This document shows, in pieces, positions 48 to 29,586 of a DNA stretch of 29,586 nt. The position numbers and the translations under genes are program-made. The notes under the pieces are model-generated. The model was not told the origin of the DNA, did not search any database, and saw only the letters and a list, made by a program, of their open reading frames with translations. The DNA lies in assembly GCA_013151645.1 (NCBI GenBank), contig JAADHU010000003.1, positions 1 to 29,586 on the forward strand. Direction: 5' to 3'. The stretch's first letter is position 1. The number at the start of each line of letters is the position of its first letter. The stretch comes from Gammaproteobacteria bacterium. GTDB taxonomy: Bacteria > Pseudomonadota > Gammaproteobacteria > Steroidobacterales > Woeseiaceae.

Positions 48-92
48 CGCAATAATCAATCGAAGCGAAGAACCCAAACCCTGACAATTGTT

Positions 93-6032: not shown

Positions 6033-6197
6033 TAGGGAACCTCTGATCAATTCCGGGCGAAGCAGATTGCTTGTCAAAATATTCCGATTCAAGGCGCGGA
6101 TCGCACGTAATAGCGAGCTATTGCGAAGATTCGCAACGCCGAAGCTGGATATTTTGACACCTAAGATGCGAGTTCAGAATTGATCAGAGGTTCCTTA
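6033..6197. mobile_element. MITE-like element: 19-bp terminal inverted repeats (GGGAACCTCTGATCAATTC / GAATTGATCAGAGGTTCCT) flanked by TA on each side
   Basis: Left TIR is 6035-6053; right TIR is 6177-6195, whose reverse complement matches 18 of 19. TA dinucleotides at 6033-34 and 6196-97 fit a Tc1/IS630-type target duplication. There is an internal hairpin TTGCGAA-gat-TTCGCAA and no coding capacity. The right half recurs at 26891-26968. Confidence 0.45.
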
Positions 6198-12251: not shown

Positions 12252-12974
12252 ATGGAGCCTGTCGACCACATTTTCATACTGCTGCTGTTCGTCGTGCAGC
12301 CCATTTATGGCGTTTTCGAAGCTCGAAGCTACAAGGCTCGAGCGAATGCGGGCCAACCGCTCAATCGAGTCCGTTTTTACCGACAGACAGCGTTGCTGGA
12401 GTGGGTATTTCTCGCGGCACTGGTCACGGTCTGGTTCACTTTCGACCGACCGATTGTGGACCTCGGTTTTGCAGCAGCCGGCGGGCCGGGATTCTGGGGC
12501 GGGGCCGCTCTGCTCATCTTGCTCAGCGGAATTCTTCTTAACACCTGGCGAATCGCGAAGCGCACGAACGACACTGATAAGGCCGAACAAGCGGAATCGC
12601 TCGGGGAGATATTGCAATTCCTTCCGCACACGACCCGTGAACTGCACAATTTCGTCGGCGTATCGATAACAGCCGGTATTGTCGAGGAGATCGTCTATCG
12701 AGGTTTCGTGCTCTGGTACCTCGCCCAAGTCATGCCGCTTTGGGTTGCCGTTGCCGTGTCATCCGTTGCATTCGGTCTCGCGCACAGTTACCAGGGTGCG
12801 ACTGGTGCCCTGCGGACGGGTCTGATCGGACTTGCCTTCGGCATCTTTTACGTTGTCACGGGTTCGATCTGGCTGCCGATCGTCGCGCACGTGCTGCTCG
12901 ATGTGCTGCAGGGCGCAGCAATACATGAACTCCTGCGCAAGGATGATGACGGCTTGGAATCGCCGCCAGCGTAA
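12252..12974 (+). CDS. CPBP-family intramembrane metalloprotease (CAAX protease / Abi, PF02517)
   Basis: Polytopic membrane protein carrying EEIVYRGFVLWYL, FGLAHSYQ and HVLLDV motifs. Confidence 0.8.
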   Translation: MEPVDHIFILLLFVVQPIYGVFEARSYKARANAGQPLNRVRFYRQTALLEWVFLAALVTVWFTFDRPIVDLGFAAAGGPGFWGGAALLILLSGILLNTWRIAKRTNDTDKAEQAESLGEILQFLPHTTRELHNFVGVSITAGIVEEIVYRGFVLWYLAQVMPLWVAVAVSSVAFGLAHSYQGATGALRTGLIGLAFGIFYVVTGSIWLPIVAHVLLDVLQGAAIHELLRKDDDGLESPPA

Positions 12975-13212
12975 CGTGCCGGGTGTGAGTTTCTGTTCAC
13001 GCAGCATGCACTCGATTCCTGCACAGTTCTCGAAATTTCCTGAGTGCCCCTGATCATTTTCTGCCCCGATACTCTTGCAAGTAATTTCAGTGCAGTAATT
13101 TCAGGACACCCATCGGTCGTTACACATTCTTGCTCCGATCCCGCTTTTCAGCCCAGGATTCCTTGAGTCCCTGCGGGGACTTCAAATTGGAAAGGTAACG
13201 GCCCGCGAATTC

Positions 13213-13452
13213 TTAGTCTATCGACTGGATTGCAATGAGTTTGTTGCTCTCATCAAAAGTAATTTCGAAGTTGCCAAAAATACCGTCGCGAGTAACGAAC
13301 TTCCGGATTGCACTGGCGGGAAAACGAATGGTTTTGTTGTCTTCAGAGCATGCAACCACATCTTGCGCGCTGCCTTGATAATAGGCCAGGTACTCTTCAG
13401 CAGATATGGCCAGTCGAAAGCGAATACTGCTTGATCGATTCCTGGTATTCAT
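13213..13452 (-). CDS. Small conserved hypothetical protein (DUF2835-like)
   Basis: 79 aa with clean codon periodicity. The pattern IRFRLAISAEEYLAYYQGSAQDVV ... FPASAIRKFVTRDGIFGNFEITFDESNKLIAIQ resembles small gammaproteobacterial DUF2835 proteins. Confidence 0.45.
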   Translation of the reverse strand: MNTRNRSSSIRFRLAISAEEYLAYYQGSAQDVVACSEDNKTIRFPASAIRKFVTRDGIFGNFEITFDESNKLIAIQSID

Positions 13453-13494
13453 TTTGCGTAAATAGAGCCTGAGGCAAGCATGATTGGGATTCTA

Positions 13495-13749
13495 TCAACA
13501 AATCAAACTGCAGCCACTCCCGCCAGTCCAATGCCTGGCTGTCCGTCCGCTTGGGTCACCAGCAAGCTGCCAACATCGTATCGCGCTGACTTCTGCTTTC
13601 GAACGCTTACCCGCGCAGCCTCTGAATACGTCACCGACAAAGTTCGGCCAGAAGGGGCCATTCGTCCTGGAGAAACGTTTGCGTATTCTAGCGAAAGCGG
13701 AGACCGTGCCGGCGAGTACGAGAGAGATCACGGATTTCTTGACTCTCAT
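13495..13749 (-). CDS. Candidate small secreted Cys-containing basic peptide (speculative)
   Basis: 84-aa ORF with a signal-peptide-like N-terminus MRVKKSVISLVLAGTVSAFA and GGGGA 7 nt before the ATG. It sits directly upstream of, and co-oriented with, the 13213-13452 gene. Competing ORFs on the opposite strand and an Arg/Gly-rich mature part argue against it. Confidence 0.25.
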   Translation of the reverse strand: MRVKKSVISLVLAGTVSAFARIRKRFSRTNGPFWPNFVGDVFRGCAGKRSKAEVSAIRCWQLAGDPSGRTARHWTGGSGCSLIC

Positions 13750-14225
13750 GTGAATTCCCCATGTATTTCTATCGTCGCCCTCGACGACGAGGGCGAGGGA
13801 TCGCCAGAGGATCGATAGCTCTACTGGCCCTGGCGCTTGGATGAAGTCCTTTCTGCATATTTGCGTTACTCAGCGGCCGTGAATACCCTGCAGCGGTAAG
13901 CGCCACCAAAGCGGGCCTGCTGCACCGAAGTCGAGCAAGACAGGCACCATTCGATTAGCCCAATGATCCAGCAGCCGATCTTTTACCTGGTGAAATATCT
14001 TAAGTGAAGGGACTTGAATAATCCGTGCCTCGACATAGTCCAAGGCCTTTAGAAACTGCTCCTCATAAGTATTGGCGGCTTCGAGTTCTTAATTGTCCGG
14101 GCAGTCAGCTTCTTTTGGGGGCATCTCTGGGCGCATCTAATCGCAATTTCATAGTAGAGGCCGCCGATTTATGCCGGCTGTCATTAAGTCTACCCAGACA
14201 TCTTCCGACGAGCTTCTCTATAACG

Positions 14226-14268
14226 CGCTGTTTTTAAAGCGAAAAAAAGAGCCGTTCCGGATCTCTCC
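14226..14268 (-). terminator. Rho-independent terminator downstream of tRNA-Met (minus strand)
   Basis: Hairpin GCCGTCCGGAGAGATCCGGAACGGC, read on the minus strand, is followed by a T-tract (the plus strand shows aaaaaaa before the hairpin). Confidence 0.6.
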
Positions 14269-14290
14269 GGACGGCCCTGGATGTTGATTT

Positions 14291-14367
14291 GGTGGTGAAG
14301 GGTGGATTTGAACCACCGACCTACGGGTTATGAGTCCGTCGCTCTAACCAACTGAGCTACATCACCG
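14291..14367 (-). tRNA. tRNA-Met (anticodon CAU), elongator type
   Basis: Minus-strand sequence GGTGATGTAGCTCAGTTGGTTAGAGCGACGGACTCATAACCCGTAGGTCGGTGGTTCAAATCCACCCTTCACCACCA. D-arm is identical to E. coli elongator tRNA-Met. The anticodon loop is CTCATAA. G1-C72 pairs, so this is not an initiator. tRNA-Ile2 (LAU) cannot be fully excluded. Confidence 0.85.
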
Positions 14368-14480
14368 TTTTGTTTCTCGCGGCGCCCTCGCGCTGATCGC
14401 AAGGGCCGGGAATTGTCCGTTGGCTCAGCCGCCGTGTCAAGACAGCGGAAGTACCTGGCCTTCGAACGCCGTATCCGTTA

Positions 14481-15572
14481 TCAGACATTAAAGCGAAAAT
14501 GCATGATATCGCCTTCTTTGACGATGTACTCCTTGCCTTCAAGCCGCAATTTGCCCGCTTCCTTGGCGCCTTGCTCGCCATTGCACGCCAGGAAATCGTC
14601 AATCGCCATGACTTCAGCACGAATGAACCCCTTCTCGAAATCCGTGTGAATCTCGCCGGCCGCCTGCGGTCCGGTTGCACCAACCTTGGTTGTCCAGGCT
14701 CGAACTTCCTTCACGCCCGCCGTGAAATAAGTCTGTAATCTGAGCAATGAATAACCGCAACGAATGACCCGATTGAGGCCCGGTTCTTGCAGGCCCAGGT
14801 CCTGTAGAAAATCCTGCTTGTCCGCTTCGTCAAGGAGCGCAATTTCCGCTTCGATGGCAGCACATACGGGAACGACTTCCGCGCCCTCTTTCTCAGCGAG
14901 TGCGCGAACGGCATCCAGATTCGGATTATCTTCAAAACCGCCTTCATCGACGTTGGCGATATACATGACCGGTTTTGCGGTCAACAATTGCAGATCCCGA
15001 AGAAAGAGCGTCTCATTCTCGTCCAGCGCCAACGTTCGTACCGGCCGCCCCTCGTCGAGATGCTCTTTCGTCTTCCTGAATGCGTCCCGAATCGCGATGG
15101 CTGTTTTGTCATTGGCCTTCGCATTGCGTTCCGCTTTGTAGAGCTGCTTTTCCACCGATTCCAGGTCGGCGAGCGCCAGTTCTGTATTAATCGTATCAAT
15201 GTCGTCAAGCGGATCGATGGTGCCTGCGACGTGCACAACGTCATCGTCTTCGAAACATCGAACAACGTGTGCGATGGCATTGGTTTCCCGAATATTGGCC
15301 AGGAACTGATTACCCAACCCCTCGCCTTTCGATGCGCCGGCTACCAGGCCGGCTATATCGACGAACTCCATGGTGGTCGGAATAATTTTTTCCGGCTTCA
15401 CAATCGCCGCGATTTCATTCAGGCGTGGATCGGGAACCGGCACAATGCCAACATTGGGTTCAATCGTACAAAACGGATAGTTCTCCGCCGGTATCTCGGC
15501 GGCCGTCAGCGCGTTGAAGAGCGTCGACTTACCGACGTTCGGCAGCCCGACGATGCCACATTTAATCGCCAT
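14481..15572 (-). CDS. ychF: Ribosome-binding ATPase YchF (Obg-family GTPase)
   Basis: [24 protein letters not shown]-loop. 363 aa with full-length YchF architecture including the TGS C-terminus. Confidence 0.95.
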
Positions 15573-15589
15573 CTATCGTCTATTCCCTG

Positions 15590-16174
15590 TCACTGGTCTG
15601 GTTTGGTGTGCAGTGTTTTCATGGCCTCATCCAGCCCGCGCTCGACAAGAACGGGGATAGTGTCGACCGCCTCATCGACGCTTCGCTGCAAGATCGCGTC
15701 TACATCGCTCGCTGCACGCTTCAGCACATAGCCTGTCACCTGGTCTTTCTGACCGGGATGTCCAACGCCGATGCGCAACCGCATGAATTCCTTTCCGCAA
15801 TGCCGTATGACATCGCGCAATCCATTGTGACCACCGTGACCACCGCTTCTCTTAAGGCGGACAGTGCCCGGTGGCAGGTCGATCTCGTCGTGCGCAATCA
15901 GCAATTGTTCGACCGGCAATCGATAGTAGTCCAGCATCGCTCGTACCGGCCCACCACTCAGATTCATGTAACTTTGCGGCTTAAGCAGCCAGACCTCGTT
16001 TGCGCCGATTGTCACCTTGCCGACGTCTGCATCGAACCGTTTCTCGTACTTAAGTTGTCCGTTCCAGCGACGTGCAATTTCATCGACGATCCAGAAACCG
16101 GCATTGTGCAGTGTCCGCGCATAGCGCTCTTCGGGATTGCCGAGGCCGGCTACAATTGAAACGTGAGTACTCAT
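15590..16174 (-). CDS. pth: Peptidyl-tRNA hydrolase
   Basis: Carries the conserved Pth N-terminal block VSIVAGLGNPEERYARTLHNAGFWIVDEIARR. Start set at MSTH (16174). Confidence 0.9.
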   Translation of the reverse strand: MSTHVSIVAGLGNPEERYARTLHNAGFWIVDEIARRWNGQLKYEKRFDADVGKVTIGANEVWLLKPQSYMNLSGGPVRAMLDYYRLPVEQLLIAHDEIDLPPGTVRLKRSGGHGGHNGLRDVIRHCGKEFMRLRIGVGHPGQKDQVTGYVLKRAASDVDAILQRSVDEAVDTIPVLVERGLDEAMKTLHTKPDQ

Positions 16175-16267
16175 CTGAACAAACGGTCTACCCGTATTTA
16201 CGAAAGCGTTGCAGCGACAATTATCGCGCAATGCCTGCCAAGAAGGGGGTTTGCCGAATTGATACGA

Positions 16268-16300
16268 AAAGGCCGCCGTACGGCGGCCTTCCCCTTTTTA
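16268..16300 (-). terminator. Palindromic hairpin GGCCGCCG-TACG-CGGCGGCC flanked by an A-run and a T-run; a bidirectional-looking terminator between ctc and pth
   Basis: Perfect 8-bp GC stem at 16271-16288. T-rich runs sit on both sides (aaaa upstream, cccttttta downstream on the plus strand). Confidence 0.55.
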
Positions 16301-16313
16301 CCGATTCAGGCAA

Positions 16314-17006
16314 TTAGTCTCCGCTGGACTCGCCGTCGGCTTCGCCAGCAGCGCCGCCCTCGGCCGCCGCTTCGTCGGCACCTTCTGTCTCTGCACCTTC
16401 GGCAACCTCTTCCTCAACCGCCGCCACCTTGATGACATGGATCGATACGACCGCCTGATCGTGCTCCGGTCCCAATGCGAGTTCCGGTATTTCAACACCT
16501 TCCGGCAAGGTAATGTCCGACAAATGCAGCATCTCGTCCAGACCCAGCGCCGAAATATCGATTTCGAAGTACTCAGGCAGATCTTTAGGCAGACAACTGA
16601 TTTCCACGTCGGTTTTCAGATGCGAAACGCTACCGCCACCCTCACGCACACCCACCGCTTCTTCCCCGTTGAGCAGGTGAATCGGTACGTTCATCTTGAT
16701 CTTCTCGTCTTCGACGATGCGCTGAAAATCCATGTGCAGGATGATTTTCCTGGCCGGGTGACGCTGAATGTCTTTGACAATAGCGGCCTGGCTCTTGTCG
16801 CCAACCTTGATGTTCAGGATGCTCGAATAGAACGACTCGTTCTCGAGTTGCTTGATGACCTTGTTATGGGCAAAGGCCAATTGGCGCGGCGGACGGCCGG
16901 CACCGTAGATGATTGCGGGAACTTTACCTTCACGACGCAGACGGCGGCTCGCACCCTTGCCCTGGCCTTCACGTATTTCCGCAATCAGATCGAATTTTTC
17001 ACTCAC
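16314..17006 (-). CDS. rplY: 50S ribosomal protein L25 / general stress protein Ctc, with an acidic Ala/Glu/Gly-rich C-terminal tail
   Basis: GTG start after a GGAGA SD. The Ctc-form L25 body includes GASRRLRREGKVPAIIYGAG. The last ~40 residues are low-complexity acidic (VAEGAETEGADEAAAEGGAAGEADGESSGD). Confidence 0.85.
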   Translation of the reverse strand: MSEKFDLIAEIREGQGKGASRRLRREGKVPAIIYGAGRPPRQLAFAHNKVIKQLENESFYSSILNIKVGDKSQAAIVKDIQRHPARKIILHMDFQRIVEDEKIKMNVPIHLLNGEEAVGVREGGGSVSHLKTDVEISCLPKDLPEYFEIDISALGLDEMLHLSDITLPEGVEIPELALGPEHDQAVVSIHVIKVAAVEEEVAEGAETEGADEAAAEGGAAGEADGESSGD

Positions 17007-17118
17007 TGGAGTTCTCCATATCTGATTGATTACTATTGATTTTTTACCCGTCCGGTTCGCGACCAATCCGCACAGGGGCGCGCATCATAGCGTAAAGAGA
17101 CAGTGAAGAAAACAGCAA

Positions 17119-18072
17119 TCAGTCGACGTACAGCGAACTCACCGACTCCTCGGCACAGATACGGCGCATCGTTTCAGCAAGCAGTTCCGCGGTCGATAAT
17201 TGGCGGATCTTACTGCAGGCCTGAGCTTCTTCATTCAACGGAATAGTGTCCGTCACCACAACCTCGTCAAGCTCGGACGCCGAGATTCGGGATACGGCGG
17301 GGCCGGACAGAACCGGATGGGTGATGTAGGCATGCACGGTCGCGGCACCCATTTTCTTGAGTGCGCCTGCCGCGTGGCACATGGTGCCAGCGGTATCCAC
17401 CATGTCGTCGATCATCACGCAGTTCTTGCCATCGACCTCGCCAATGATGTTCATGACTTCGGATTGATTCGCCTTGGAACGTCGTTTGTCGATGATGACC
17501 AGATCGGCGTCATCGAGACGCTTGGCCAATGCGCGCGCGCGCACAACGCCGCCCACATCGGGCGACACCACCACCATATCCGCAAATTTCTGTTTCCAGG
17601 CATCGCCCAGTAAAACCGGTGATGCGTAAACATTGTCCACCACGATATCGAAGAAACCCTGAATTTGATCCGCGTGCAAATCAACCGTCAGGACGCGATC
17701 GACACCGGCGACACCAATCAGTTTCGCCACCAGTTTCGCGGTGATTGGCACGCGAGAAGCACGTGGCCGGCGATCCTGCCGTGCAAAACCGAAGTACGGG
17801 ATGACCGCCGTAATGCGCGACGCCGAAGCGCGGCGGCATGCGTCGACCATCACCAGCAGCTCCATCAGGTTTTCAGACGTTGGCGGGCACGTCGATTGCA
17901 CGATAAAGGCCTCGCGACCACGAATGTTCTCGAGAATCTCGACGTTGATCTCGCCGTCGCTGAATCGGCCAACCTGGGCTTTTGCCAGGGGTACATGAAG
18001 AACCCGGGCGATATCCTTGGCCAGTTTGGGGTGCGCATTCCCCGAAAATAACGCCATCGCTGCCGGATCCAC
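17119..18072 (-). CDS. prs: Ribose-phosphate pyrophosphokinase
   Basis: PRPP synthetase motifs, including [27 protein letters not shown] (the PRPP-binding loop). GTG start at 18072 follows an AAGGGAGG SD; an alternative ATG is at 18057. Confidence 0.95.
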
Positions 18073-18133
18073 TGCGGTGCCTCCCTTATTGCTTTGTTAC
18101 GGAGTTCGTATCCCGGGCATGATTGATGAGGAA

Positions 18134-18208
18134 CTGGCTGGGGTGGCAGGGATCGAACCTGCGAATGACGGGATCAAAACCCGCTGCCTTACCACTTGGC
18201 TACACCCC
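18134..18208 (-). tRNA. tRNA-Gln (anticodon UUG)
   Basis: Minus-strand sequence TGGGGTGTAGCCAAGTGGTAAGGCAGCGGGTTTTGATCCCGTCATTCGCAGGTTCGATCCCTGCCACCCCAGCCA, close to E. coli tRNA-Gln1. The anticodon loop is TTTTGAT. Confidence 0.9.
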
Positions 18209-18326
18209 AATCGTCTGCTCCGCGTCACCAATGGCGAGAAAATGAGCTCCTGTGTCGCGCGCAATTGTGCGGTTCGACAACGGACGTGTCAATCGGATTT
18301 CAATTCGGACGGGAACCCGGTCCGGG

Positions 18327-18968
18327 CTAGAAAAACGTCCAGCGATCGATCACCAGGCGTACTTTTGCATCACCATTGACTGCAGTTATGCGTCGCGGCA
18401 TCAACTGCCCGCCGCCCTCTCGATATTGGCTGATACTAACCCGCCAGTTTCCTTGCTCGAGACGAACAAGCTGGCCGCTGTCACCGAATTCGGTCACCGC
18501 GGGACCCGCCGGGTCGGGAATGCCGAGGGCCCAGTATCGCAGGCTGGTCACCGGGATTGTCCAGCCATACATCCTGCGAAGATCTTCTTCCGGTCGGGTG
18601 AGCTCGACCTCCCGACCCTCCCTGTCAACGACAGTCACATGCCCGCTATCGCCGTTGATCTTGACCACACCTGCGCCCAGCGGGCCACTGAGCGTCGCCG
18701 AAAAACCGTTCCTGACCTGGTTCCAGCGCAGTTTTCCGTTGAAGCCCTCGGTGCCTGCGCTCACGCCAATGCGGCCTGTAAATGCCCATTCATCGGTGTT
18801 TGAGAGAATGTCCCGCCGTGTGTCCCAGTCGGTCAACGGTGGCAATACCGCGCCGCTGTTTACAGCGCAGGACGAGAGCAGAATTATCCCAAGCGCAATC
18901 GTTGCGAAGCGCGTCAACAACGCATCGCACACTGACTCAATCGGGATTTGACGAAAATTCTCGTTCAC
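18327..18968 (-). CDS. lolB: Outer-membrane lipoprotein LolB
   Basis: Lipobox LLSSC, then LolB-like blocks WAFTGRIGVS and LRYWALGIP. The start is uncertain: the ATG at 18968 overlaps the upstream TPR gene by 32 nt, and an alternative TTG/GTG start lies near 18900. Confidence 0.8.
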   Translation of the reverse strand: MNENFRQIPIESVCDALLTRFATIALGIILLSSCAVNSGAVLPPLTDWDTRRDILSNTDEWAFTGRIGVSAGTEGFNGKLRWNQVRNGFSATLSGPLGAGVVKINGDSGHVTVVDREGREVELTRPEEDLRRMYGWTIPVTSLRYWALGIPDPAGPAVTEFGDSGQLVRLEQGNWRVSISQYREGGGQLMPRRITAVNGDAKVRLVIDRWTFF

Positions 18969-20643
18969 GAAGATTCTTCAGGAGCAGATTGTCGGGACTA
19001 TCAACCTCGGCAGCCGCCAATACTTGCCGCGCTTCATCCATGCGTTCAAGCTTTATCAGCGTCTCGACAATGTGTGCCGCGACCTCTCCGTCGCGAAGCA
19101 AACTGTATGCGCGCTGCAGCTCCGACAACGCACGCTCGTATTTGCCCTGTTTGTACAGGACCCAGCCGTAGCTATCGATGATCGCCGGGCTGTCGGGTTC
19201 AATTTTCAGCGCTTTTCGAATCAACCGCGAAGCCTCTGAATAGCGCGTCGTCCGGTCCGCCAGCGTATAACCGAGTGCGTTTAACGTTGCAGCGCTACCG
19301 GGAAAGAGTTTGATTGCTTTGCGATAGTCGGCCACGGCGTCGTCGATTCGATCCATTCTGACCAGCAACTCTGCTCTTCCCAGCAATACGTTTTCCTGCT
19401 CCGGCCGATACGAGACGACTCGATCGTATATCAGCAACGCTTCCGGGTAGCGTTTCAGCGATGCCAGCAATTGTGCCTGAGCCTGGATCATCGCAACCAT
19501 ATGATTGGGATGCATCTCGCCGAATTCTCGCAAATGCTCCAGCGCAGCATCCACATCTCCCTGAGCGGCGATAAGGCTGCTTGCCCGCCGTTGCGATACC
19601 ACCGCATTCGGCCCACTGGAAATCTGCGAATAAAACTCGATCGCACGCCTCGTCTGCTGACGCTGATCCGCGATACGCGCGAGGTAATAGAGTGCGTCCA
19701 TCGTAAAACGGCCACTGCTTAGCAGGTCCTGGAAATCGTCTGTCGCGGCATCCAGAAAACCCAGCCGAAAATTGATGATCGCCATCAGGCGCAGTGCGTC
19801 TGAACGTGCCGGCTGCTCCAGCAAGATCTGATTGACCTGGCTCAGAGCGTCATCGTCACGCCCGGCGGAGAGGTACATGATCGCAAGTTCAAGACGCGCT
19901 GCCGGATCCGGGTCCGCGTCGTCACCGACTAACCGCGCAACGTAGGCAATGGCCGCGTCCGCATCGCCAGCAAGCAATAGCGAGCGAGCGTACACAAGGC
20001 GCGGTTTCAACCACTCCGGATCGATTTCGATCGCCCTCTTCGCTTCGCTGCCCGCTCGGTCAGCTTCCTCGGCCTGCAGCGCCATAACCGCAACCGCGTA
20101 GTGAGCCTGGGCTGAGTTCCGGTACGGTCTGGCCAGATCTCGCATGAGTTTAAGGGCATCATCCGCATCTTCCTGCGCGAGGAAAGGGATGAACGTCATG
20201 AGTTTCTTGTCTGCCTCGCCACCGCCTCTGTTTAACAATGTGCGGAAACTGCGTTTGGCGTCGCGCAGCTTGCCAAGCCTGAGCTCAAGTTGCGCGACAT
20301 AGAGAAGCGCCTCATCGCTGTCTTCGTCCAACTCGACCCAGCGCCTGGCGGATGCGAGCGCATCCTCGGAAAAACCATAGCTGTAGGCCACCCGGGTCGC
20401 CTGCATCGCTGTTTTCGCCTCAGAGCTGTATTGGGCGGCAAGGCGAAATTCGGCCGCCGCACGATCAAATTCGTGTTGCTTGAGGGCCAGTTCGCCTGCC
20501 TCGATGTGGGCGCGGACACGCTCATTCTCCAGCCCCTGGGCCGCAATGGGCGTGTACAGAAAACAGGCCATCAGTATCGCAGGCAACAGGCGGGCACCGT
20601 AATCACGTCCAATACGGGCAGTAAAAGGCAGCTTATGAGTCAT
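18937..20643 (-). CDS. Tetratricopeptide-repeat protein with signal peptide (PA4667-like, upstream of lolB)
   Basis: Repeated TPR-like helical pairs run throughout. N-terminal signal-like LLPAILMACFLYTPIAAQG. Start set at the internal MTHKLPF. Conserved position between hemA and lolB. Confidence 0.8.
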   Translation of the reverse strand: MTHKLPFTARIGRDYGARLLPAILMACFLYTPIAAQGLENERVRAHIEAGELALKQHEFDRAAAEFRLAAQYSSEAKTAMQATRVAYSYGFSEDALASARRWVELDEDSDEALLYVAQLELRLGKLRDAKRSFRTLLNRGGGEADKKLMTFIPFLAQEDADDALKLMRDLARPYRNSAQAHYAVAVMALQAEEADRAGSEAKRAIEIDPEWLKPRLVYARSLLLAGDADAAIAYVARLVGDDADPDPAARLELAIMYLSAGRDDDALSQVNQILLEQPARSDALRLMAIINFRLGFLDAATDDFQDLLSSGRFTMDALYYLARIADQRQQTRRAIEFYSQISSGPNAVVSQRRASSLIAAQGDVDAALEHLREFGEMHPNHMVAMIQAQAQLLASLKRYPEALLIYDRVVSYRPEQENVLLGRAELLVRMDRIDDAVADYRKAIKLFPGSAATLNALGYTLADRTTRYSEASRLIRKALKIEPDSPAIIDSYGWVLYKQGKYERALSELQRAYSLLRDGEVAAHIVETLIKLERMDEARQVLAAAEVDSPDNLLLKNLREREFSSNPD

Positions 20644-20747
20644 ACTTGTAAGGAATTTTCTTCGTCGAGGCGAACACAGACAGGGAACTGGATCATCAGT
20701 TCGCTTATGATACGCACTCTTTTCGATCCGTACACCCGAATAACCTG

Positions 20748-22007
20748 ATGTCACTCAAAATTTTAGGCCTGAACCATAGCACGGCACCTGTCGAAATACG
20801 CGAGCAGGTGGTCTATGCCGGCGATGACATTCCGCGTGCGCTGGCGGCGCTCGTGACGCTTGATGATGTGCGCGAGGCGGTCGTGCTTTCCACTTGCAAT
20901 CGGACCGAATTTTACATTGCCGCTGGCAACAACGGTACCGACGAACTGGCTGACTGGCTCAAGTCGGACCAGGACCTGGGTTCCACCGCCGAAGCAGCGC
21001 TATTTACGCTGGAGGGTGACGACGCTATTCAACATCTGTTTCGAGTGGCGTGTGGACTGGAATCGATGGTGCTTGGCGAACCACAGGTTCTCGGTCAGCT
21101 AAAAGACGCTTTCCGTCACGCGGAAAAACAAGGTACCGTCGGTCCTGCCCTGACACGCCTGTTTCATCATACGTTTTCAGTGGCCAAGAAGGTCCGTACG
21201 GACACCGAGATCGGTGCCAGCCCGGTTTCGGTCGCCTATGCCGCCGTCAATCTCGCTAACCAGTTTTTCGCCGGCTTCAGTCAGCATACGGCATTGCTAA
21301 TTGGCGCTGGCATGACCATGCAGCTGGTCGCGAAGCATCTTGTCGGAAAAGGCATTGGGCGCCTGTTCGTCGCCAACCGTGACATTGGCCGAGCACAGGA
21401 ACTCGCCAACGAATTCGGCGGTTACGCCCTGCCCCTGTCGGAAATCGACGGTACGCTGGAAGACGCAGACATCCTCATCAGCTCCACGGCCAGCCCCAAC
21501 TACATCGTCACGCGGGAGCAAATGGTCAAGGCGATCAAGGCAAGGAAACGCAAGCCGGTATTTGCGGTCGATATCGCCGTACCCCGGGATCTGGACCCCG
21601 AAATCAATGAACTGAACGATGTGTACCTTTACACGATCGACGATCTCGACAAGGTCATCCTCGAAGGTCAGGGCAATCGCGAAGCAGCGGTAGTGGACGC
21701 GAAAAGGATTCTGCAGGATGAAACCGAACGCTACCTGGAAATCGAACGAAGCAAGGACGTCGCACCCGTCATTACGGCGATTCGTGACTACGGCGATGCG
21801 CTAAGGGATGAAGTCCTGCAAAAGGGCCTGCGGCGACTGCGCAAGGGCTCTGACAGTGAAGAAGTACTGGAATACGTGACGGCGGCTTTGCTGAAAAAAC
21901 TGCTGCACCAACCCAGTGTTCGCCTTCGCGAAGCGGGCGAAGACGCCGACAAAGCGTTTATCGCCATGGCTCGCGAACTATTTAATCTCAAAGACGAGCG
22001 AGAATAA
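20748..22007 (+). CDS. hemA: Glutamyl-tRNA reductase
   Basis: Starts [19 protein letters not shown] and includes the active-site region [11 protein letters not shown] and the NADPH-binding segment [13 protein letters not shown]. Confidence 0.95.
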
Positions 22008-22011
22008 TCGC

Positions 22012-23094
22012 GTGAAAGACTCCGTACGCAACAAACTGGAAAACACGCGTGACCGGCATGAGGAAGTGGCTGGCCTGATGGCGGACCCCGGCGTGATCGC
22101 CGACCAGAATCAGTTTCGCGAGCTTTCGCGGGAATACGCACGCCTTGACCCGATTGTCGCCCGATTCGGCCGATTCGAAGCATTAAGCGCGGATCTCGTC
22201 GCGGCCGGAGAAATGGCAAACGATGCCGATGCCGACGTCCGCCAAATGGGCGAAGAGGAACTTGCGTCCCTCAGCGAAGAACGAGACGCGATCCTGGTCG
22301 AGCTGCAGAAATCGCTGATTCCTCCGGACCCGCACGATGACAGCAACGTCTTCCTCGAGGTCCGCGCGGGCACGGGAGGCGACGAAGCAGCCATCTTCGC
22401 AGGCGACTTGTTCCGTATGTACGCCAAATACGCAGAAACGCGAAAATGGTCGCTGGAAATCATCAGTGCGCGCGAAGGCGATCACGGCGGCTACAAGGAA
22501 ATCATCTGCCGCATTTCCGGTGACGGAATTTTCGCACGGCTAAAATTCGAATCGGGCGCGCACCGCGTACAGCGCGTGCCGACAACCGAGTCCCAGGGAC
22601 GCATACACACATCGGCCTGCACGGTTGCCGTTTTACCCGAACCGGACGCAGTAGAGGAAACCGACATCAATCCCGCCGATTTACGCGTGGATACTTACCG
22701 GGCCTCGGGTGCGGGCGGGCAGCACGTTAACAAGACGGATTCCGCCGTGCGCCTGACGCACCTGCCAAGCGGTATCGTGGTCGAGTGCCAGGACGAACGT
22801 TCACAGCACAAGAACAAAGCCCGCGCCCTGTCTTTACTGCAAGCGAAGTTGCTGGACGCCGAATTATCGGCGCGTGCCAGCGAACAGGCCGAGCGTCGCA
22901 AACTGCAGGTGGGGACCGGCGATCGCTCGGAGCGCATCCGAACGTACAACTATCCGCAAGGACGGGTCACCGATCACCGCATCAACCTCACTCTGTATAA
23001 GCTCGCTGAAATACTGGAAGGCGACCTCGACCAGGTCATCGAGCCGCTGTTCAATGAATACCAGGCCGACCAGCTGGCGGCGCTGGGCGAGTAA
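22012..23094 (+). CDS. prfA: Peptide chain release factor 1
   Basis: GTG start 5 nt after the hemA stop. GGQ motif ([18 protein letters not shown]) and PxT-domain region are present. Confidence 0.95.
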
Positions 23095-23120
23095 GCCGTC
23101 TTACCCGCGCAAGCGGGTCC

Positions 23121-23500
23121 CGACGCACGACCGGGCTCAAGAGGATCGCGTCTCAGGTGACGCTCCTACAGTTTGTCCCATTGCCACTCCTGCAGGAGCG
23201 TGACCTGACGCGCGACCAAGCTCAAGAGGTCGCCTCTCAGGTGACGCTCCTACAGTTTGTCCCATTGCCACTCCTGCAGGAGCGTGACCTGACACACGAC
23301 CGGGCTCAAGAGGATAGCCTCTCAGGTGACGCTCCTACAATTATTCTACTGGCACTCCTGTAGGAGCGTGACCTGACGCGCGACCAGGCTCAAGAGGTCG
23401 CCTCTCAGGTGACGCCCCTACAGTTTGTCCCATTGCCACTCCTGTAGGAGCGTGACCTGACGCGCGACCAGGCTCAAGAGGATCGCCTCTCAGGTGACGC
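23121..23500. repeat. Tandem array of about 4.5 copies of an 84-86-bp palindromic repeat unit, each containing a roughly 19-bp-stem hairpin
   Basis: Units begin at 23121, 23207, 23291, 23375 and 23459. Each has TCAGGTGACGCTCCTACAG - 18-22-nt loop - CTG(C/T)AGGAGCGTGACCTGA plus a small AGAGG-tcg-CCTCT hairpin. Units are over 90% identical with no unique spacers. The array lies between the convergent prfA and CBS gene ends. Confidence 0.85.
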
Positions 23501-23521
23501 TTACGATCGTTACCGGCTTGC

Positions 23522-24886
23522 TTACATCTGCTTGCGCAGGTAATTGAGTACGTCGGAGCGGGTAATCAATCCCAGAAACTGCTCACCGTCCATTACGGCG
23601 GCGTACGGCTGCACGTGCAACATCGCCACGAGGTTATTAACACTCGTGTTCTTGTCGAGCTGAATGAACGCGGTTTGCATACCTTCACTGACACAGGAAT
23701 TCATCAGTTCGGGTTTGCCAAAAACGAGACGAATAATGGCGTCTTCCGTCAGCACACCGACCAGCTTGCCGTCTTCCATGACTGGTAGCTGTGAAAAACC
23801 GGCGTTTCTCAGACGATTGTGTGCCGTCGTCAGCGCATCCCTCGGGCTGACGGTAATGGTGGCCCTTTGTCCGTGCAATCGTCCTATCAGGTCACGTAAA
23901 TCGCCGTATTGCTCGCGCTCGATAAACCCCTGATCTTCCAGCCAGAAGTCGTTGTACAGTTTCGACAGGTATTTGTTGCCCGTGTCGCAGACAAAACTGA
24001 CGACGCGCCGGGCTTCCGTCTGCTCACGACAATACTTAAGCGCCGCACAGATCAAAGTGCCGCTGGACGAACCCGCCAGCAAACCCTCTTTTTTCAACAA
24101 TTCACGGGCTGTGCCGAACGACTCCGCATCGGAAATGCTGTAAGCCTTTTTAACCTGGCTAAAATCGGCGATAGACGGTATAAAATCTTCACCAATTCCC
24201 TCGACCAGCCAACTGCCGTTTTTTTCGTGCAATTCACCTTCGTTGATGTAATCCGCGAGGATTGATCCCACCGGGTCCGCAAGAATCAAATCGACATCGG
24301 GTGCGTTTTTCGCCAGGAATTTGCTCAGGCCGGAAACCGTCCCGCTCGAACCCACGCCGAGCACGATAGCGTCAAGATCGCCGTCCATCTGCTGCAGAAT
24401 CTCCGGTCCCGTGGTCAATTCATGTGCCAAAGGGTTGTCCGGGTTGCCGAACTGATTGATGAAGTACGCCCCTTTCTCTTCGGCAATACTTAGGCCCAGA
24501 TCCTGGTAGTACTCGGGATGTCCTTTCGCTACATCGGAGCGGGTCAAGACGACCTCGGCACCCATCGCCCGCAGATTGAAAATCTTTTCCTGGCTCATCT
24601 TGTCGGGAAGAACAAGAATCAGGTTGTACCCTTTTTGCGCCGCCACCAACGCGAGGCCCAGTCCGGTATTTCCGGCGGTCGCCTCAACGATCGTATCGCC
24701 GCGTTTGATATCCCCCCGTTTTTCCGCCTGCTCAATCATGGATACGCCGATTCGGTCCTTGATTGAGCCAGCCGGGTTGAGGAGTTCGAGTTTGAGAAAC
24801 AGGCGGCACGGTCCGGTGTCGATATGGGTCACTTCGAGCATCGGGGTCTGACCGACCATATCGAGAATATTCGAGAATACGTTCAT
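23522..24886 (-). CDS. Cystathionine beta-synthase (PLP-dependent, cysteine-synthase fold plus C-terminal CBS-domain pair)
   Basis: PLP-lysine region LELLNPAGSIKDRIG and glycine loop GSSSGT. The C-terminal roughly 120 aa form tandem CBS/Bateman motifs. Start set at MNVFSNIL. Confidence 0.85.
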   Translation of the reverse strand: MNVFSNILDMVGQTPMLEVTHIDTGPCRLFLKLELLNPAGSIKDRIGVSMIEQAEKRGDIKRGDTIVEATAGNTGLGLALVAAQKGYNLILVLPDKMSQEKIFNLRAMGAEVVLTRSDVAKGHPEYYQDLGLSIAEEKGAYFINQFGNPDNPLAHELTTGPEILQQMDGDLDAIVLGVGSSGTVSGLSKFLAKNAPDVDLILADPVGSILADYINEGELHEKNGSWLVEGIGEDFIPSIADFSQVKKAYSISDAESFGTARELLKKEGLLAGSSSGTLICAALKYCREQTEARRVVSFVCDTGNKYLSKLYNDFWLEDQGFIEREQYGDLRDLIGRLHGQRATITVSPRDALTTAHNRLRNAGFSQLPVMEDGKLVGVLTEDAIIRLVFGKPELMNSCVSEGMQTAFIQLDKNTSVNNLVAMLHVQPYAAVMDGEQFLGLITRSDVLNYLRKQM

Positions 24887-24958
24887 TGAAGGTACTGCTT
24901 CTTTTCGAAGGGGCTGCAATACTACGCGAACGACACAGTCTACGGCCAGAAAACCGCT

Positions 24959-25819
24959 ATGGCGATTAACATAGAATCCGCATTGGTAAGTGCGACCCGG
25001 GCGTTACAGGGCGTGAGCGACTCGCCGCGTCTCGATGCCGAGTTGTTGTTGATGTTCGTGCTGGAAGTACCGAGAAGCCACCTGTTTGCGCACCCGGACA
25101 GGGAACTGGACAGGAGGGATGATGCCCGACTACGGTCATTGCTTGAACGCCGGCTCAAACACGAACCGGTCGCGTATCTGACCGGCGAAAAAGAATTCTG
25201 GTCGTTGTCGCTGCAGGTCACCCCGGCGACGCTCGTTCCTCGCCCTGAAACCGAACGGCTGGTGGAAGCGGCGCTGACGCTCATTCAGCCGAATGCGAAC
25301 GTAGCTGTTCTTGACCTGGGCACCGGCAGCGGCGCCATCGCGATTGCCATTTCGAGCGAGCGTCCGCAATGCCACATCGTAGCCACGGATCGTAGTGCGT
25401 CGGCATTGAGCGTTGCGACCGCTAACGCCGTACGGCACGAACTGACCAACATATCGTTTCAACAAGGCGACTGGCTGGAAGCGGTGGCCGGCGAAACCTT
25501 CGATATTATCGTTTCCAACCCCCCTTACATTGCCAGCGACGACACGGCACTCGCACAACTGCCCTGCGAACCACGAAGCGCGCTAGCCTCCGGCAAACAC
25601 GGCCTGGACGCCATTCGCCGTATCGCTGCTGACTCAGGCCGTCACCTCGTCAGCGGCGGCACCCTGCTCCTCGAACATGGCGCCGACCAGCAAGAATCGG
25701 TCGCACGAATTCTGGCGGGGCAGAATTGGCGGAATATTCAATGCCTGTCCGATCTGTGCGGCCTGCCGCGCGTAACGCGTGCTATGTGGCAATCGCCCGG
25801 AGAATCAGAGGTTCCCTAA
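24959..25819 (+). CDS. prmC: Release factor glutamine N5-methyltransferase PrmC (HemK)
   Basis: NPPY motif (IVSNPPYIA), SAM-binding VLDLGTGSGAIAIA, and a HemK N-terminal domain. Confidence 0.9.
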   Translation: MAINIESALVSATRALQGVSDSPRLDAELLLMFVLEVPRSHLFAHPDRELDRRDDARLRSLLERRLKHEPVAYLTGEKEFWSLSLQVTPATLVPRPETERLVEAALTLIQPNANVAVLDLGTGSGAIAIAISSERPQCHIVATDRSASALSVATANAVRHELTNISFQQGDWLEAVAGETFDIIVSNPPYIASDDTALAQLPCEPRSALASGKHGLDAIRRIAADSGRHLVSGGTLLLEHGADQQESVARILAGQNWRNIQCLSDLCGLPRVTRAMWQSPGESEVP

Positions 25820-26775
25820 CGCACCAACTCGGTTTGCGGATGGAAAGTGAACCAGGCAAACCAGAACACACGGGTTGGGGCAAAGCGTTCGGCTGAAGCG
25901 CCATCGACGAGCGTGACCGCCCCGTCCTCAGCCACGATGACGGTCAACTCGCGACCGTTCAGCGTGTGACTGACCTTGCTCGATCGCTGCAACAGTGCTT
26001 CGGTAAAGGCGATGGTCTCCTGACCAAGATCAAAGCCGAACACGACTTCCTTCGGTCGAATGACGTCGTTCGTTCGGCTGACGGGAAACATCAGGCGCTC
26101 GTCCTGCCGATACTTTGCGTAGTAGTCCTGCGTGTAATCTCGGCCGGCACCCTGATCGGCTGACAGGACCAGCGTTTCCGGATGGGCTGCTTTCCAGCGC
26201 CCCCAACGTGTCACAGTAATCGGTACCAGCTCCAGCTTCTCGCCGGTCAGCGGGCCGACAATACCTTCCGCGGCGATCTGGTCCCACAGCGTTTCCGTCG
26301 TCCGGTCATAAAAAACCAGCGCGCTGTTGTACAACAAACCCGATACACCGAACTCCGTGACCTGGCCGTTGATCTTGCGCAGCACACCAACAGCGGAACC
26401 GCAGAGTGGACAATACGTCACCGCGATGGGCGTGCCGCCGACGACATCATTGACGATTTCGTGCTGATCCAGAATCCTCGAAGGATAGGCGCGATACTCG
26501 CCCTGCCAGGATAACGCCAGCACAATGTCATTGTCAGTCAGATGGCTTGCTGCGGACGCGCTGACGAATCTCGGTTTATCGATCGACGGAATGCAGTCTC
26601 GCGCCGAACAACCCTGCCGCAACTGATCCAGTGCAACCGATTTCCGGGTCGAATCATCGAAACCGAAGGTATCGGCGAGAATATCGGTCGCCCGACTGTT
26701 CTGCGCCAATACCAGGCCTGCCAGCAAAAGGAAGCAAACCGGAAACAGCCGGCGCGAATAAAACGGAGCGGACAT
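25816..26775 (-). CDS. Secreted DUF3179-like protein
   Basis: Signal peptide (LFPVCFLLLAGLVLA). Blocks TYCPLCGS and VFWFAWFTFHP resemble the DUF3179 family. Overlaps the prmC stop by 4 nt, in convergent orientation. Confidence 0.55.
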   Translation of the reverse strand: MSAPFYSRRLFPVCFLLLAGLVLAQNSRATDILADTFGFDDSTRKSVALDQLRQGCSARDCIPSIDKPRFVSASAASHLTDNDIVLALSWQGEYRAYPSRILDQHEIVNDVVGGTPIAVTYCPLCGSAVGVLRKINGQVTEFGVSGLLYNSALVFYDRTTETLWDQIAAEGIVGPLTGEKLELVPITVTRWGRWKAAHPETLVLSADQGAGRDYTQDYYAKYRQDERLMFPVSRTNDVIRPKEVVFGFDLGQETIAFTEALLQRSSKVSHTLNGRELTVIVAEDGAVTLVDGASAERFAPTRVFWFAWFTFHPQTELVR

Positions 26776-26890
26776 TGAGTTACTCCTGCAAATTTACTGA
26801 AAAGAATTCCGCCGATCAATCGCGCAACTGTTGATCGGCTCTTAGCAGGAGACCCTGACGATCAGTCGATTATTTCACCGGGTCCGGCTG

Positions 26891-26968
26891 TTGCGAAGAT
26901 TCGCAACGCCGAAGCTGGATATTTTCAAAGGCAGGATGCGAGTTCAGAATTAATCAGAGGTTCCCTAG
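26891..26968. repeat. Partial (right-half) copy of the MITE-like element of 6033-6197, ending in a TIR plus TA that overlaps the stop codon of the 26965-28125 gene
   Basis: 78 nt align at about 88% to 6121-6198, including the internal hairpin TTGCGAA-gat-TTCGCAA and the TIR GAATTAATCAGAGGTTCCC followed by TA. Confidence 0.45.
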
Positions 26969-28125
26969 CTCAACCATTCGACGACGCTCATACCGACGAA
27001 ACTGCCGATGGCGTAACCAAAGGAACCGGCAAGAATGCCTGGAACCGTCAGGTGGCCCCAGCCCTTGGCCGATGCGATTGCCGGCGCCATGGCCGGTCCG
27101 CCGATACAGACGGCTGAACCCATGAGTATCTCGCCCAGGTCCAGCTTGAACAGGCGACCGAGCGGCAGCAGAAGCAGCAGATGTACGCTGACAATGATCA
27201 ATGCAACCACAAACAGGATCGGCGCGATCTCGACCAGTTTCCAGACATCGGCACTGGCGCCAATCGTTGCCAGGAAAATGAACATCAGGACATTGCCGGC
27301 TTCGGTGAATGCCGACATTCTTGCCACCAGTCGTGGTGCCAGCGTGGCCACCATGAGCGCAAGAAAGGTAATGATCAGAATCCCGTATTGCGGCCTCTCG
27401 AACCAGTTCGCAATGAGGTGTCCGGCCGCGGCCAGCGCGAACGCGAGCGACAGCGCGGCGGTCAGACCGGCGATATCGAGGTTCGCGACCTGGTGAACGG
27501 GTTTGTCCGGGGCGTTTGCAGGCGAATCAATCACCGGCTCCCGCCGACCGGGAAACCATCGGGCGAATGCTGCAATGCCGGGCAGCGTAATAATCAGGAT
27601 CAAATGCAGATTCGTGATGACATTGTCCGCCGCAAACATCGCCGCAAGATAGGTCTTGTCCGCAAACTGCGTCGCTTCGGCCACGGCGGCAAAATTCAGC
27701 GAGCCGCCGATATAGGTACCTGTGAATATGCCCGCCAGGGCCGGTTCCGTCGGCCCCAGATCAACAAGAGACATGGCGATAAAAACACCGGCGACGACCG
27801 TTGCGCTGCCGATGACAAAAGCGACCAAAGTCGCACCGGCCTCGCGAAATACACGCCGCAGGTCTGCCTGAAACAGCAACAGGGGTATGGCGATCGGCAC
27901 CAGGTACTCCCAGACAACATCGTAGACCGGCGCAGCCGAAGGAATAATGCGCAGATTGGATAGTACGACGGCCAGCGTAATCAGCAACATCACACCTGAA
28001 TACTTGCGACCAAAAGGGAAGCGCTCACACCAGAAACCGAATGCTGCGATACCGATAAGTACGGCCCAGAGCGCGAAGTCCTGATGCGGACCAATGAGCG
28101 GCAAGAACTCGGCGCCGGCTTGCAT
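26965..28125 (-). CDS. Polytopic membrane protein, DUF819-like
   Basis: About 11 predicted TM helices with two-fold internal symmetry (transporter-like). Start set at MQAGAEF, which follows a CAGGAG RBS. Confidence 0.6.
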
Positions 28126-28266
28126 ATCACGCTCCTGGAGACGGGTAGTGGCTGCAAGGTACACCAGTTGCGCGGCGAAAAGAAATGCGGCGCGATGACA
28201 TGCCGGGGACACCGTACCGCGATCTGTGATACACAGACATCCCGTTTAAACAATTACCGAGTTTCT

Positions 28267-28752
28267 ATGATTACTATCGTGACCAATCACGGCGATATCG
28301 TCGTTGAACTTTTCGAGGAAACCGCCCCGATCTCCTGTGCGAACTTCAAACAGTACCTAGAGGAAGGCCATTTCACCGAAACCATATTTCATCGTGTCAT
28401 TCCGAATTTCATGATTCAGGGCGGTGGCATGACGGCCGACATGCAAAGCAAATCGACGCGCGAGCCCATCAAGAATGAAGCCGACAATGGTGAGCAAAAC
28501 CTGCGTGGCACGCTTGCCATGGCACGCACCGGCGTCGTCGACAGTGCAACGTCGCAGTTCTTCATCAATCTCCGCGATAATGACTTCCTGAACCACAGTA
28601 ATCGCGATTTTGGTTATGCTGTATTTGCCAAAGTCACTGATGGCATGGACGTGGTCGACACCATCGGCGCCGTGGCCACGGGCACGAGCGGCGGGCAACA
28701 GGACGTACCAACGGACCCCGTCGTCATCCAGGAAATTCGTATCTCGGAGTAG
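28267..28752 (+). CDS. ppiB: Cyclophilin-type peptidyl-prolyl cis-trans isomerase
   Basis: [24 protein letters not shown] ... [14 protein letters not shown] ... GTLAMARTG are cyclophilin signature blocks. 161 aa from the internal ATG. Confidence 0.9.
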
Positions 28753-28757
28753 ACCCG

Positions 28758-29513
28758 ATGCCCGAACCGGAACTTTCTGCAGGCAGGGCCGCACGCCATC
28801 TGGCGCTGCCGCAGATCGGTGCTGAGGGCCAGGAACGCATTGCGGCGTCCACGGCGCTATTGATCGGTGTGGGCGGGATTGGTTGCGCGGCCGCAAGCTA
28901 CCTCGCGAGCAGCGGCGTAGGGCGATTGCTTTTGTGCGATTTCGATACCGTCGATGCCACCAATCTCGGCCGCCAGATTTTGTACGGGCCGGCGGATGTT
29001 GGCGAGCTAAAGGCACAATGCGCCGTATCGCGGCTCAGCAAGGTTAATCCCGAAATCGAGCTGACGCCGATCGTGGATCGATTGAACGGTGCAGCGCTGG
29101 CTAAGGCCGTTGCCGAAGCTGATATCGTCCTGGACGGCTGCGATAACTTCGCGACCCGCTTCAACGTCAGCGACGCCTGCGTCGCAAACAGGCGCCGACT
29201 GGTTTCGGGTTCGGCGATTCGCTTCGAAGCGCAACTTGCCACCTTCGGTCCCGACTATGAAACGTCTCCCTGTTACCGATGTCTTTATACGGAAGCCGAC
29301 GAGTCGCTGGAAAACTGCACGGGCAACGGCGTATTGGCACCTGTTCCTGGTGTCGTCGGTACGATGATGGCGGTTGAGGCGTTGAAGTTCCTGGGCGGCA
29401 TAGAGAATCCACCCGGCAGGTTGACCTTGTACGAAGGGCTGTCGGGTGACTGGCGTCAGGTCACAATCAGGAAACGTGCTGATTGTTGCGGGTGTTGCTC
29501 CGGGAGTGGATAA
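28758..29513 (+). CDS. moeB: Molybdopterin-synthase adenylyltransferase (ThiF/MoeB E1-like)
   Basis: Glycine-rich nucleotide loop LLIGVGGIGCAAASYLASSGVG, a ThiF fold, and C-terminal CxxC...CxxC zinc motifs (CYRC, CCGCC). Pseudomonas synteny places moeB next to prmC. Confidence 0.85.
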   Translation: MPEPELSAGRAARHLALPQIGAEGQERIAASTALLIGVGGIGCAAASYLASSGVGRLLLCDFDTVDATNLGRQILYGPADVGELKAQCAVSRLSKVNPEIELTPIVDRLNGAALAKAVAEADIVLDGCDNFATRFNVSDACVANRRRLVSGSAIRFEAQLATFGPDYETSPCYRCLYTEADESLENCTGNGVLAPVPGVVGTMMAVEALKFLGGIENPPGRLTLYEGLSGDWRQVTIRKRADCCGCCSGSG

Positions 29514-29544
29514 CCTATTCGCTGAACGCGAATCGGGTCGCGCC

Positions 29545-29586
29545 TCGGGAGATGCTCCTACAGTCTTTCTATCGGCACCCCTCCTG
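29545..29586. repeat. Partial copy (left half plus loop) of the 84-bp palindromic repeat family, at the 3' end of moeB
   Basis: cgcctcgggagatgctcctacagtctttctatcggcacccctcctg aligns with the unit segment cgcctctcaggtgacgctcctacagtttgtcccattgccactcctg. Confidence 0.5.

Follow-up and report, generated by a model that had tools for sequence, protein, structure and literature searches.

A probable BIME-like cluster of GTAG-type REPINs between the convergent prfA and CBS genes of an uncultured marine gammaproteobacterium

The array between prfA and the CBS gene

The convergent ends of prfA and a CBS gene on contig JAADHU010000003.1 (assembly GCA_013151645.1), of which a stretch of 29,586 nt was analysed and is called the window below, are separated by a tandem array of hairpin-forming units, which raises the question of what kind of element has been repeated there and by what means. 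In the first-pass annotation, the array was described as about 4.5 copies of an 84-bp repeat and was likened to REP/BIME-type or Correia-like extragenic palindromes. Tandem Repeats Finder likewise detects a single array at this place (23122-23501; period 84 bp, 4.5 copies, 88% matches, score 620), and domain matches agree with the two flanks, namely prfA (PCRF and RF-1 domains; stop codon 23092-23094), which lies on the 5' side, and a minus-strand PALP+CBS (cystathionine-beta-synthase-like) gene (stop 23522-23524), which converges with prfA onto the array. According to our analysis, the array is very probably a BIME-like cluster of REPINs built from GTAG-1-type REPs, carried by an uncultured marine gammaproteobacterium related to Woeseiaceae-type MAGs. 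This reading draws on the structure of the REPs, their dispersal, their association with a RAYT gene, and the presence/absence and copy-number polymorphism of the array, all of which were observed directly.

The intergenic spacer measures 427 bp (23095-23521), about 400 bp of which is occupied by the array, with a degenerate REP remnant starting 17 nt past the prfA stop and a last, incomplete iREP ending 20 nt short of the stop codon of the CBS gene (Table 1). When up to two mismatches are allowed, a stem motif of 19 nt, TCAGGTGACGCTCCTACAG, is found at eight places in the array, its strand alternating, compared with no match in shuffled windows, and both strands of the spacer fold far more stably than shuffles (z -8.4 and -8.75). 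The full units are 82-94% identical to each other, rather than all above 90% as was thought at first, and a higher-order periodicity of two units (168-169 bp) is also seen within the array. The loop of unit 3 does differ from the others, as had been remarked; however, it is the consensus-like loop of the family, while the loops of the remaining units represent a locus-specific derived variant, indicating that the array is not a simple recent duplication of a single unit. A GC hairpin noticed earlier beside prfA is present, although one base downstream of the position first given (23102-23117), and because its 3' half belongs to the REP remnant, the remnant marks the true start of the array. 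As for the small AGAGG-tcg-CCTCT hairpin, which had been ascribed to each unit, it is found in some units of this locus and is missing from arrays elsewhere. Neither an intrinsic terminator nor a promoter was found on either strand of the spacer by consensus scan, no IHF consensus match was seen in the spacer by eye, and a search of the whole window against Rfam at gathering thresholds returned two tRNAs only, with no match at or near the array.

Table 1. Coordinates of the parts of the array and of the repeat copies at the window edges
Feature	Position	Strand	Remarks
Right half of isolated REPIN cut by window start	1-49	+	loop plus REP at 22-47 (GCAGGAGCGTCTCCCGAGGCGCGACC)
Hairpin ACCCGC-GCAA-GCGGGT	23103-23118		formed by 5' part of REP remnant with prfA-proximal sequence
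Degenerate REP remnant, AGCGGGTCCCGACGCACGACC	23112-23132	+	without GTAG head; aligns with 3' part of other REPs plus linker
Whole tandem array	23122-23501	.	(iREP, 21-22-nt loop, REP, 10-nt linker) repeated
Linker 0, gggctcaaga	23133-23142	+	directly after REP remnant
iREP 1	23143-23169	-	minus-strand reading GTAGGAGCGTCACCTGAGACGCGATCC; C..G subtype; T-A pair in stem
REP 1, GCAGGAGCGTGACCTGACGCGCGACC	23192-23217	+	G..C subtype; head decayed to GCAG
Linker aagctcaaga	23218-23227	+	recurs at 23133-23142, 23302-23311, 23386-23395 and 23470-23479
iREP 2	23228-23253	-	C..G subtype; tail variant GAGAGGCGACC
REP 2, GCAGGAGCGTGACCTGACACACGACC	23276-23301	+	
iREP 3	23312-23338	-	followed by consensus-like loop aattattctactggcactcct at 23339-23359
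REP 3, GTAGGAGCGTGACCTGACGCGCGACC	23360-23385	+	canonical
iREP 4	23396-23421	-	
REP 4, GTAGGAGCGTGACCTGACGCGCGACC	23444-23469	+	canonical
Truncated iREP 5	23480-23501	-	without CTAC end
Left half of isolated REPIN cut by window end	29534-29586	-	iREP at 29536-29561 plus loop

The related copies that had been noticed at both edges of the window are halves of isolated REPINs, which are cut by the window ends, and the one at the right edge is complete in the near-identical contig L060 (16644-16718). A 12-nt indel (aatcgggtcgcg) between window 29520-29540 and L060 16630-16650, by which the outer end of the left arm of this isolated REPIN is removed in the near-identical contig, is a case of small-scale decay of REP ends between strains.

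Some further features of the window were observed besides the array. In gammaproteobacteria, prfA and prmC are usually adjacent; here the gene order is prfA, CBS gene and prmC, with the CBS-like PALP+CBS gene (23522-24919, minus strand) inserted between the other two in opposite orientation. A second family, MITE-like and unrelated to the array, is present at 6035-6195, with partial copies at 26887-26968 and 25803-25831 and further copies in L007, L014, L023, L092 and L099; this family, about 165 bp in length, possesses terminal inverted repeats of about 19 bp (TAGGGAACCTCTGATCAATTC / GAATTGATCAGAGGTTCCTTA), and its DNA folds at -41.8 kcal/mol (z -7.3). Also unrelated to the array, the segment 13216-13520 shares 94% DNA identity with L018 5523-5827, from a MAG that is much more divergent otherwise; Rfam gives no match for it, and a small conserved minus-strand ORF (about 13214-13450) can be read from it.

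REP structure and dispersal of the family

The 19-bp hairpin that had been taken as the basic unit exists, but each such hairpin is composed of a pair of 26-nt REPs in inverted orientation, together a REPIN, the arms of which differ in subtype. Among 171 arms from the window and related loci, the layout is GTAG, GA, GCGTS, a 6-nt loop, SGCGC and GAC. The units of the array combine the stems GCGTC...GGCGC (C..G) and GCGTG...CGCGC (G..C), the former in the left arms and the latter in the right arms, with the GTAG ends facing a spacer of 21-22 nt and a 10-nt linker, RGCTCARGAG, joining successive units. In 121 of the 171 arms the fifth, innermost stem pair is C-G, in 41 it is G-C, and just two arms have it broken, while the neighbouring pair is T-G, G-C or T-A, and the GAC tail is found in 151 of the 171. 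GTAGGAG belonged to the search filters, and its invariance is therefore partly by construction; REP heads degenerate to GCAG are also present in the window.

Covariation identifies the small stem of each arm as the conserved feature. Among the 68 distinct arms, 95% of cells are paired, compared with 83.8% in column shuffles (none of 500 reaches 95%), and changes on both sides of the stem are found in 30 cells versus 11.1 expected, these counts being of sequences and not of independent events. Registers slid along the arm pair in just 17-73%. In the hairpins of the window, the mismatches between the two arms fall exactly on the covarying pair, which means that the small stem is kept at the expense of the long one; since small stems covary where the long hairpin mismatches, the small stem-loop is what is conserved, and the long hairpin is a doublet of REPs. 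When folded as DNA, a single REP reproduces the predicted stem with a weak fold (-3 to -4 kcal/mol, no better than shuffles), and fold energies of REPINs range from -20.8 to -35.3 kcal/mol (z -5 to -10).

In an exact-pattern scan of one genome per species, the repeat was found in at least 59 stretches, nearly all in the related MAG JADFNG01, in which it lies on at least 42 contigs, so that the family, as had been expected, is probably genome-wide. It is also carried by one Woeseiaceae MAG among the matches listed, and a metagenome scan recovered at least 120 stretches with the repeat. The DNA retrieved in this way (about 1 Mb) holds 271 non-redundant clusters, comprising 86 singlets, 135 doublets and 50 clusters of at least three REPs. 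It also contains 138 distinct REPINs, with a modal length of 73 bp (90 of 138) and a minor class of 62-63 bp. In isolated tail-to-tail doublets, the spacer is mostly 21 nt long (72 of 105), and isolated REPINs are mostly C..G homodimers (78 of 105). With inverted REPs, a short fixed spacer, a hairpin and more doublets than singlets, these elements are REPINs. A full-text literature search found no paper on REPs in Woeseia.

The gene context was scored by a crude longest-ORF rule in 59 loci of the related MAG (matches listed) together with the window. Of the 57 clusters that could be scored there, 41 are located between convergent 3' ends and two between divergent genes, and few clusters fall within long ORFs according to these crude gene calls.

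Arrays made of the C..G/G..C heterodimer and the RGCTCARGAG linker, with a period of 82-84 bp, are present at no fewer than 14 other loci in several assemblies and also in L060, which excludes the early concern that the unit might be unique to the prfA-CBS locus. The array linker aagctcaaga of the window is a member of this linker, which is common to arrays at other loci and genomes. The largest array, L004 of the related MAG, consists of 14 REPs in seven REPINs. Two alternating subtypes, conserved linkers and a copy number that is variable among relatives make these arrays BIME-2-like clusters. Arrays of another kind, with a 47-bp period and a half-unit (REP plus loop) repeated nearly always on the same strand, were observed in L043 (5483-5884) and L057 (9-175), where they contain up to nine REPs and reach the contig ends; half-unit arrays on one strand are not producible from a palindromic unit by simple duplication.

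The RAYT gene and copy number at the locus

Motif and tblastn searches detected no RAYT gene in the window, L060 and the 59 MAG loci (about 476 kb in total), and a weak lead in L025 proved to be a HAD-family acid phosphatase. Among metagenome contigs, tblastn with E. coli TnpA-REP as the query (its sequence verified as identical to PDB 4er8) matched two, each encoding a 164-aa ORF, which matches the NCBIfam model NF047646 "REP-associated tyrosine transposase" at 137-139 bits (cutoff 80) as well as Pfam Y1_Tnp. This protein carries PDHFHW (HUH) and YxxxNP motifs and is about 50% identical to homologues that include annotated RAYTs of Pseudomonas. The RAYT gene has REPINs of the array's family on both sides in L082, L075, L181 and L190. 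The last of these is a 3.7-kb contig of GCA_024276555.1, another contig of which is 98.2-98.7% identical to window 12702-29586, and its RAYT copy (P0002) is 77% identical and scores 132 bits on NF047646 (cutoff 80). The search for a RAYT elsewhere, as suggested in the first-pass annotation, has therefore yielded a REPIN-flanked gene, one copy of which belongs to a MAG of the same species. In L190, the RAYT is flanked by family REPs, and the array linker gggctcaagag follows one of them. The REPs that flank the RAYT are of the TCTCCYGAG subtype, neither of the two subtypes in the array. The RAYT is tied to the window's genome via the MAG binning of the 3.7-kb contig and the shared REPs, and we assume that it may act on the REPs of the array.

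The repeat thus combines a palindromic unit of 26 nt, a GTAG head, two unpaired bases (GA), a 3-bp tail, dispersal, extragenic placement and a RAYT, and is a GTAG-1 REP; the initial likening to REP/BIME-type extragenic palindromes holds, given the GTAG-tagged covarying arms, their dispersal and strongly extragenic placement, and a RAYT flanked by the repeats. The site of the RAYT gene is conserved, between a sigma-54 response regulator and a DUF6152 gene. As a separate observation, the RAYT is inverted with respect to both neighbours in GCA_024276555.1 (L190 1474-1968, compared with L181 6001-6495 and L082 655-1149), and an inverted gene between flanking inverted REPINs suggests inversion via recombination between those REPINs.

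The array itself varies among relatives. The 4.5 units in the 427-bp spacer of the window stand against 2.5 units in a 259-bp spacer in the near-identical contig of GCA_024276555.1, a difference of exactly 168 bp, that is, one two-unit step. In a sister population, represented by 11 contigs, the prfA-CBS spacer is 53 bp long and REP-free; the contig L063, the sole one measured, encodes prfA and CBS proteins with 91% and 94% identity to those of the window. Since these spacers do without any unit, the array is dispensable for the prfA-CBS locus. The 53-bp spacer (L063 9147-9199; L193-L202, e.g. L193 3584-3636) contains CAGGAGTGGCA, which matches the reverse complement of the array loop/stem junction over 11 nt and could be either the relic of a deleted REPIN or a chance match. 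One Logan contig stops 63 nt beyond the prfA stop codon, and both window ends lie within REPIN loops, breaks that come from the repeats in short-read assembly, and the difference in copy number between assemblies could partly reflect short-read collapse.

By analogy with E. coli TnpA-REP, from which binding and cleavage of single-stranded REPs by RAYTs are deduced (PMC3333891, PMC8266576), a single-copy RAYT, as an HUH/Y1 enzyme, would spread the REP family. It would bind the small REP stem-loop together with the GTAG head on single-stranded DNA, cut and rejoin it, with cleavage presumably at CT sites, which are present in the array linker and in CTAC. The array may then grow and shrink in 84- or 168-bp steps via RAYT-mediated recombination between neighbouring units, and slippage or unequal crossing-over between units might act as an alternative or additional route. 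A putative effect on the host would arise because each convergent transcript would carry long stable hairpins at its 3' end; in other systems, REPs in such places reportedly stop 3' exonucleases and lessen read-through. The array might also terminate prfA and CBS transcription, as proposed in the first-pass annotation; the consensus scan shows no canonical intrinsic terminator in the spacer, and close relatives have a 53-bp spacer with no array in it.

Other explanations and known systems

It is very unlikely that the array consists of a Correia-like or other MITE, that is, an element with terminal inverted repeats that is not autonomous, relies on a DDE transposase for its movement and was repeatedly inserted or duplicated here. 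Elements of 61-74 bp dispersed in intergenic DNA do resemble inverted-repeat MITEs, and the separate, truly MITE-like 165-bp family coexists with them in the window. However, no fixed-length target-site duplication was found around the 138 elements, the flanks of which show only a slight excess of 1-2-nt identity over shuffled flanks, and every arm has its own covarying stem-loop and GTAG head. Moreover, the repeats flank a RAYT and not a DDE transposase, and REP singlets and same-strand half-unit arrays exist, which are not expected from an element that depends on its terminal inverted repeats. Correia elements of Neisseria are about 100-155 bp long, with terminal inverted repeats, a TA target duplication and an IHF site, and are not known to carry a RAYT. 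Like other MITEs of this kind, they share with the present repeat a small size, dispersal, intergenic position and hairpin formation, and they can affect transcript ends; unlike them, the present repeat lacks target duplication, its arms are REP stem-loops and it is accompanied by a RAYT. With no sign of a DDE-type element either, the Correia-like part of the first-pass annotation was given up. A locus-specific minisatellite or assembly artefact, in which a local tandem duplication would be unrelated to any genome-wide family, can hardly be credited: two assemblies of the same species do differ in copy number and short-read contigs break at the array, yet the 84-bp unit and its linker also form arrays at many other loci and in other genomes, isolated copies lie at both window ends, and the units, with the distinct loop of unit 3, are divergent enough to be uniquely assemblable. 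The chance that we are dealing with a CRISPR-like or other RNA-gene array, which palindromic repeats at regular spacing might call to mind, is practically nil, since unique spacers are absent, as was recognized at first; the segments between the arms are both repeats in their own right and the arms alternate in orientation, while no Rfam match lies near the array and cas genes are absent among the neighbours scanned.

A selective role of the array deserves separate consideration. It is possible, though on balance doubtful, that the array represents a host module maintained by selection rather than merely selfish DNA, namely a BIME-2-like unit at convergent ends that would act as a barrier to transcription from both sides, stabilise mRNA 3' ends or bind gyrase or nucleoid proteins. 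The strong enrichment of clusters between convergent 3' ends is consistent with such a role, as are the conservation of the linker and heterodimer across loci and genomes, the spacer without a canonical terminator in the consensus scan and the very stable folds of both of its strands; for the BIMEs of E. coli, roles in termination, stabilisation and topological insulation and as gyrase/IHF sites have been reported (PMC3333891). On the other hand, the array is missing from the orthologous spacer of the sister population and its copy number varies within the species, and a purge of insertions elsewhere would lead equally well to the excess at convergent ends. We regard as rather improbable the further proposal that the heterodimeric REPIN and RGCTCARGAG constitute a distinct self-amplifying BIME-2-like module of an uncultured sediment lineage, which the RAYT would install and resize via CT sites in the linker and iREP and which would be kept preferentially between convergent genes as a bidirectional barrier to transcription or supercoiling. 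If this were true, ongoing RAYT-driven recombination would have left its footprints in the array subtype, in the 47-bp half-unit arrays on one strand and in the inversion of the RAYT between flanking REPINs.

As a BIME-like cluster of REPINs, the array belongs to a known type of element, by which the knowledge of REPs is left unchanged and no long-standing question is opened. Its contribution is a clean REP/REPIN-RAYT system from a gammaproteobacterial lineage of marine sediment that has not been cultured. In this system, a heterodimer subtype forms arrays, and one locus shows a natural series of 0, 2.5 and 4.5 units, usable for studying how BIME-like arrays arise and resize. The repeat family also explains the assembly breaks at these sites in these organisms.

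The local subtype GTAGGAGCGGG...CCCGCGAC presumably has the same head and stem as a REP of P. putida. GTAG-1 REPs have been described in Pseudomonas, Thioalkalivibrio K90mix, Xanthomonas and Thauera (Di Nocera et al. 2013, PMC3733652); they carry extra GW bases and a tail of 3 bp, and often occur as tail-to-tail dimers and in tandem clusters. Similar to these, the present REPs possess a GTAG head, an unpaired GA, a short stem rich in GC, in which compensatory variants and G-T pairs are found, and a tail of 3 bp, form tail-to-tail dimers and tandem clusters frequently, and are associated with RAYT genes. Unlike these, they have a 6-nt loop (ACCTGA, TCCTGA or TCCCGA), their tail is GAC instead of GAA, they belong to a gammaproteobacterium from sediment that is uncultured, and the dimer spacer and array linker are lineage-specific.

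REPINs and tandem REPIN clusters are also known from Pseudomonas fluorescens SBW25 (Bertels & Rainey 2011, PMC3116915). In both systems, an inverted REP pair with a short spacer forms a hairpin and is the predominant unit (here 135 doublets versus 86 singlets), ordered clusters consist of a tandemly repeated REPIN with flanking sequence, and REPIN clusters adjoin a RAYT gene. However, the clusters of SBW25 repeat local flanking sequence, whereas here two-subtype heterodimers and one linker recur across loci, and the arrays of SBW25 reach four REPINs, compared with seven in a single array of the related MAG.

Finally, E. coli BIME-2, composed of y and z2 REPs with S and s/l/r linkers (PMC3333891), offers a close parallel in architecture. 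The REPs of E. coli belong to the GTAG-3 type, in which GTAG is followed directly by a long bulged stem, and are unrelated to ours in sequence, and gyrase binding has been shown for E. coli BIME-2. Nevertheless, both are made of alternating inverted REPs of two subtypes separated by two alternating short linkers, both keep the units within a locus well conserved while the copy number per locus varies between strains (PMC3333891), and both have a CT in the linker as well as within CTAC of the iREP, the positions at which TnpA-REP cleaves in E. coli.
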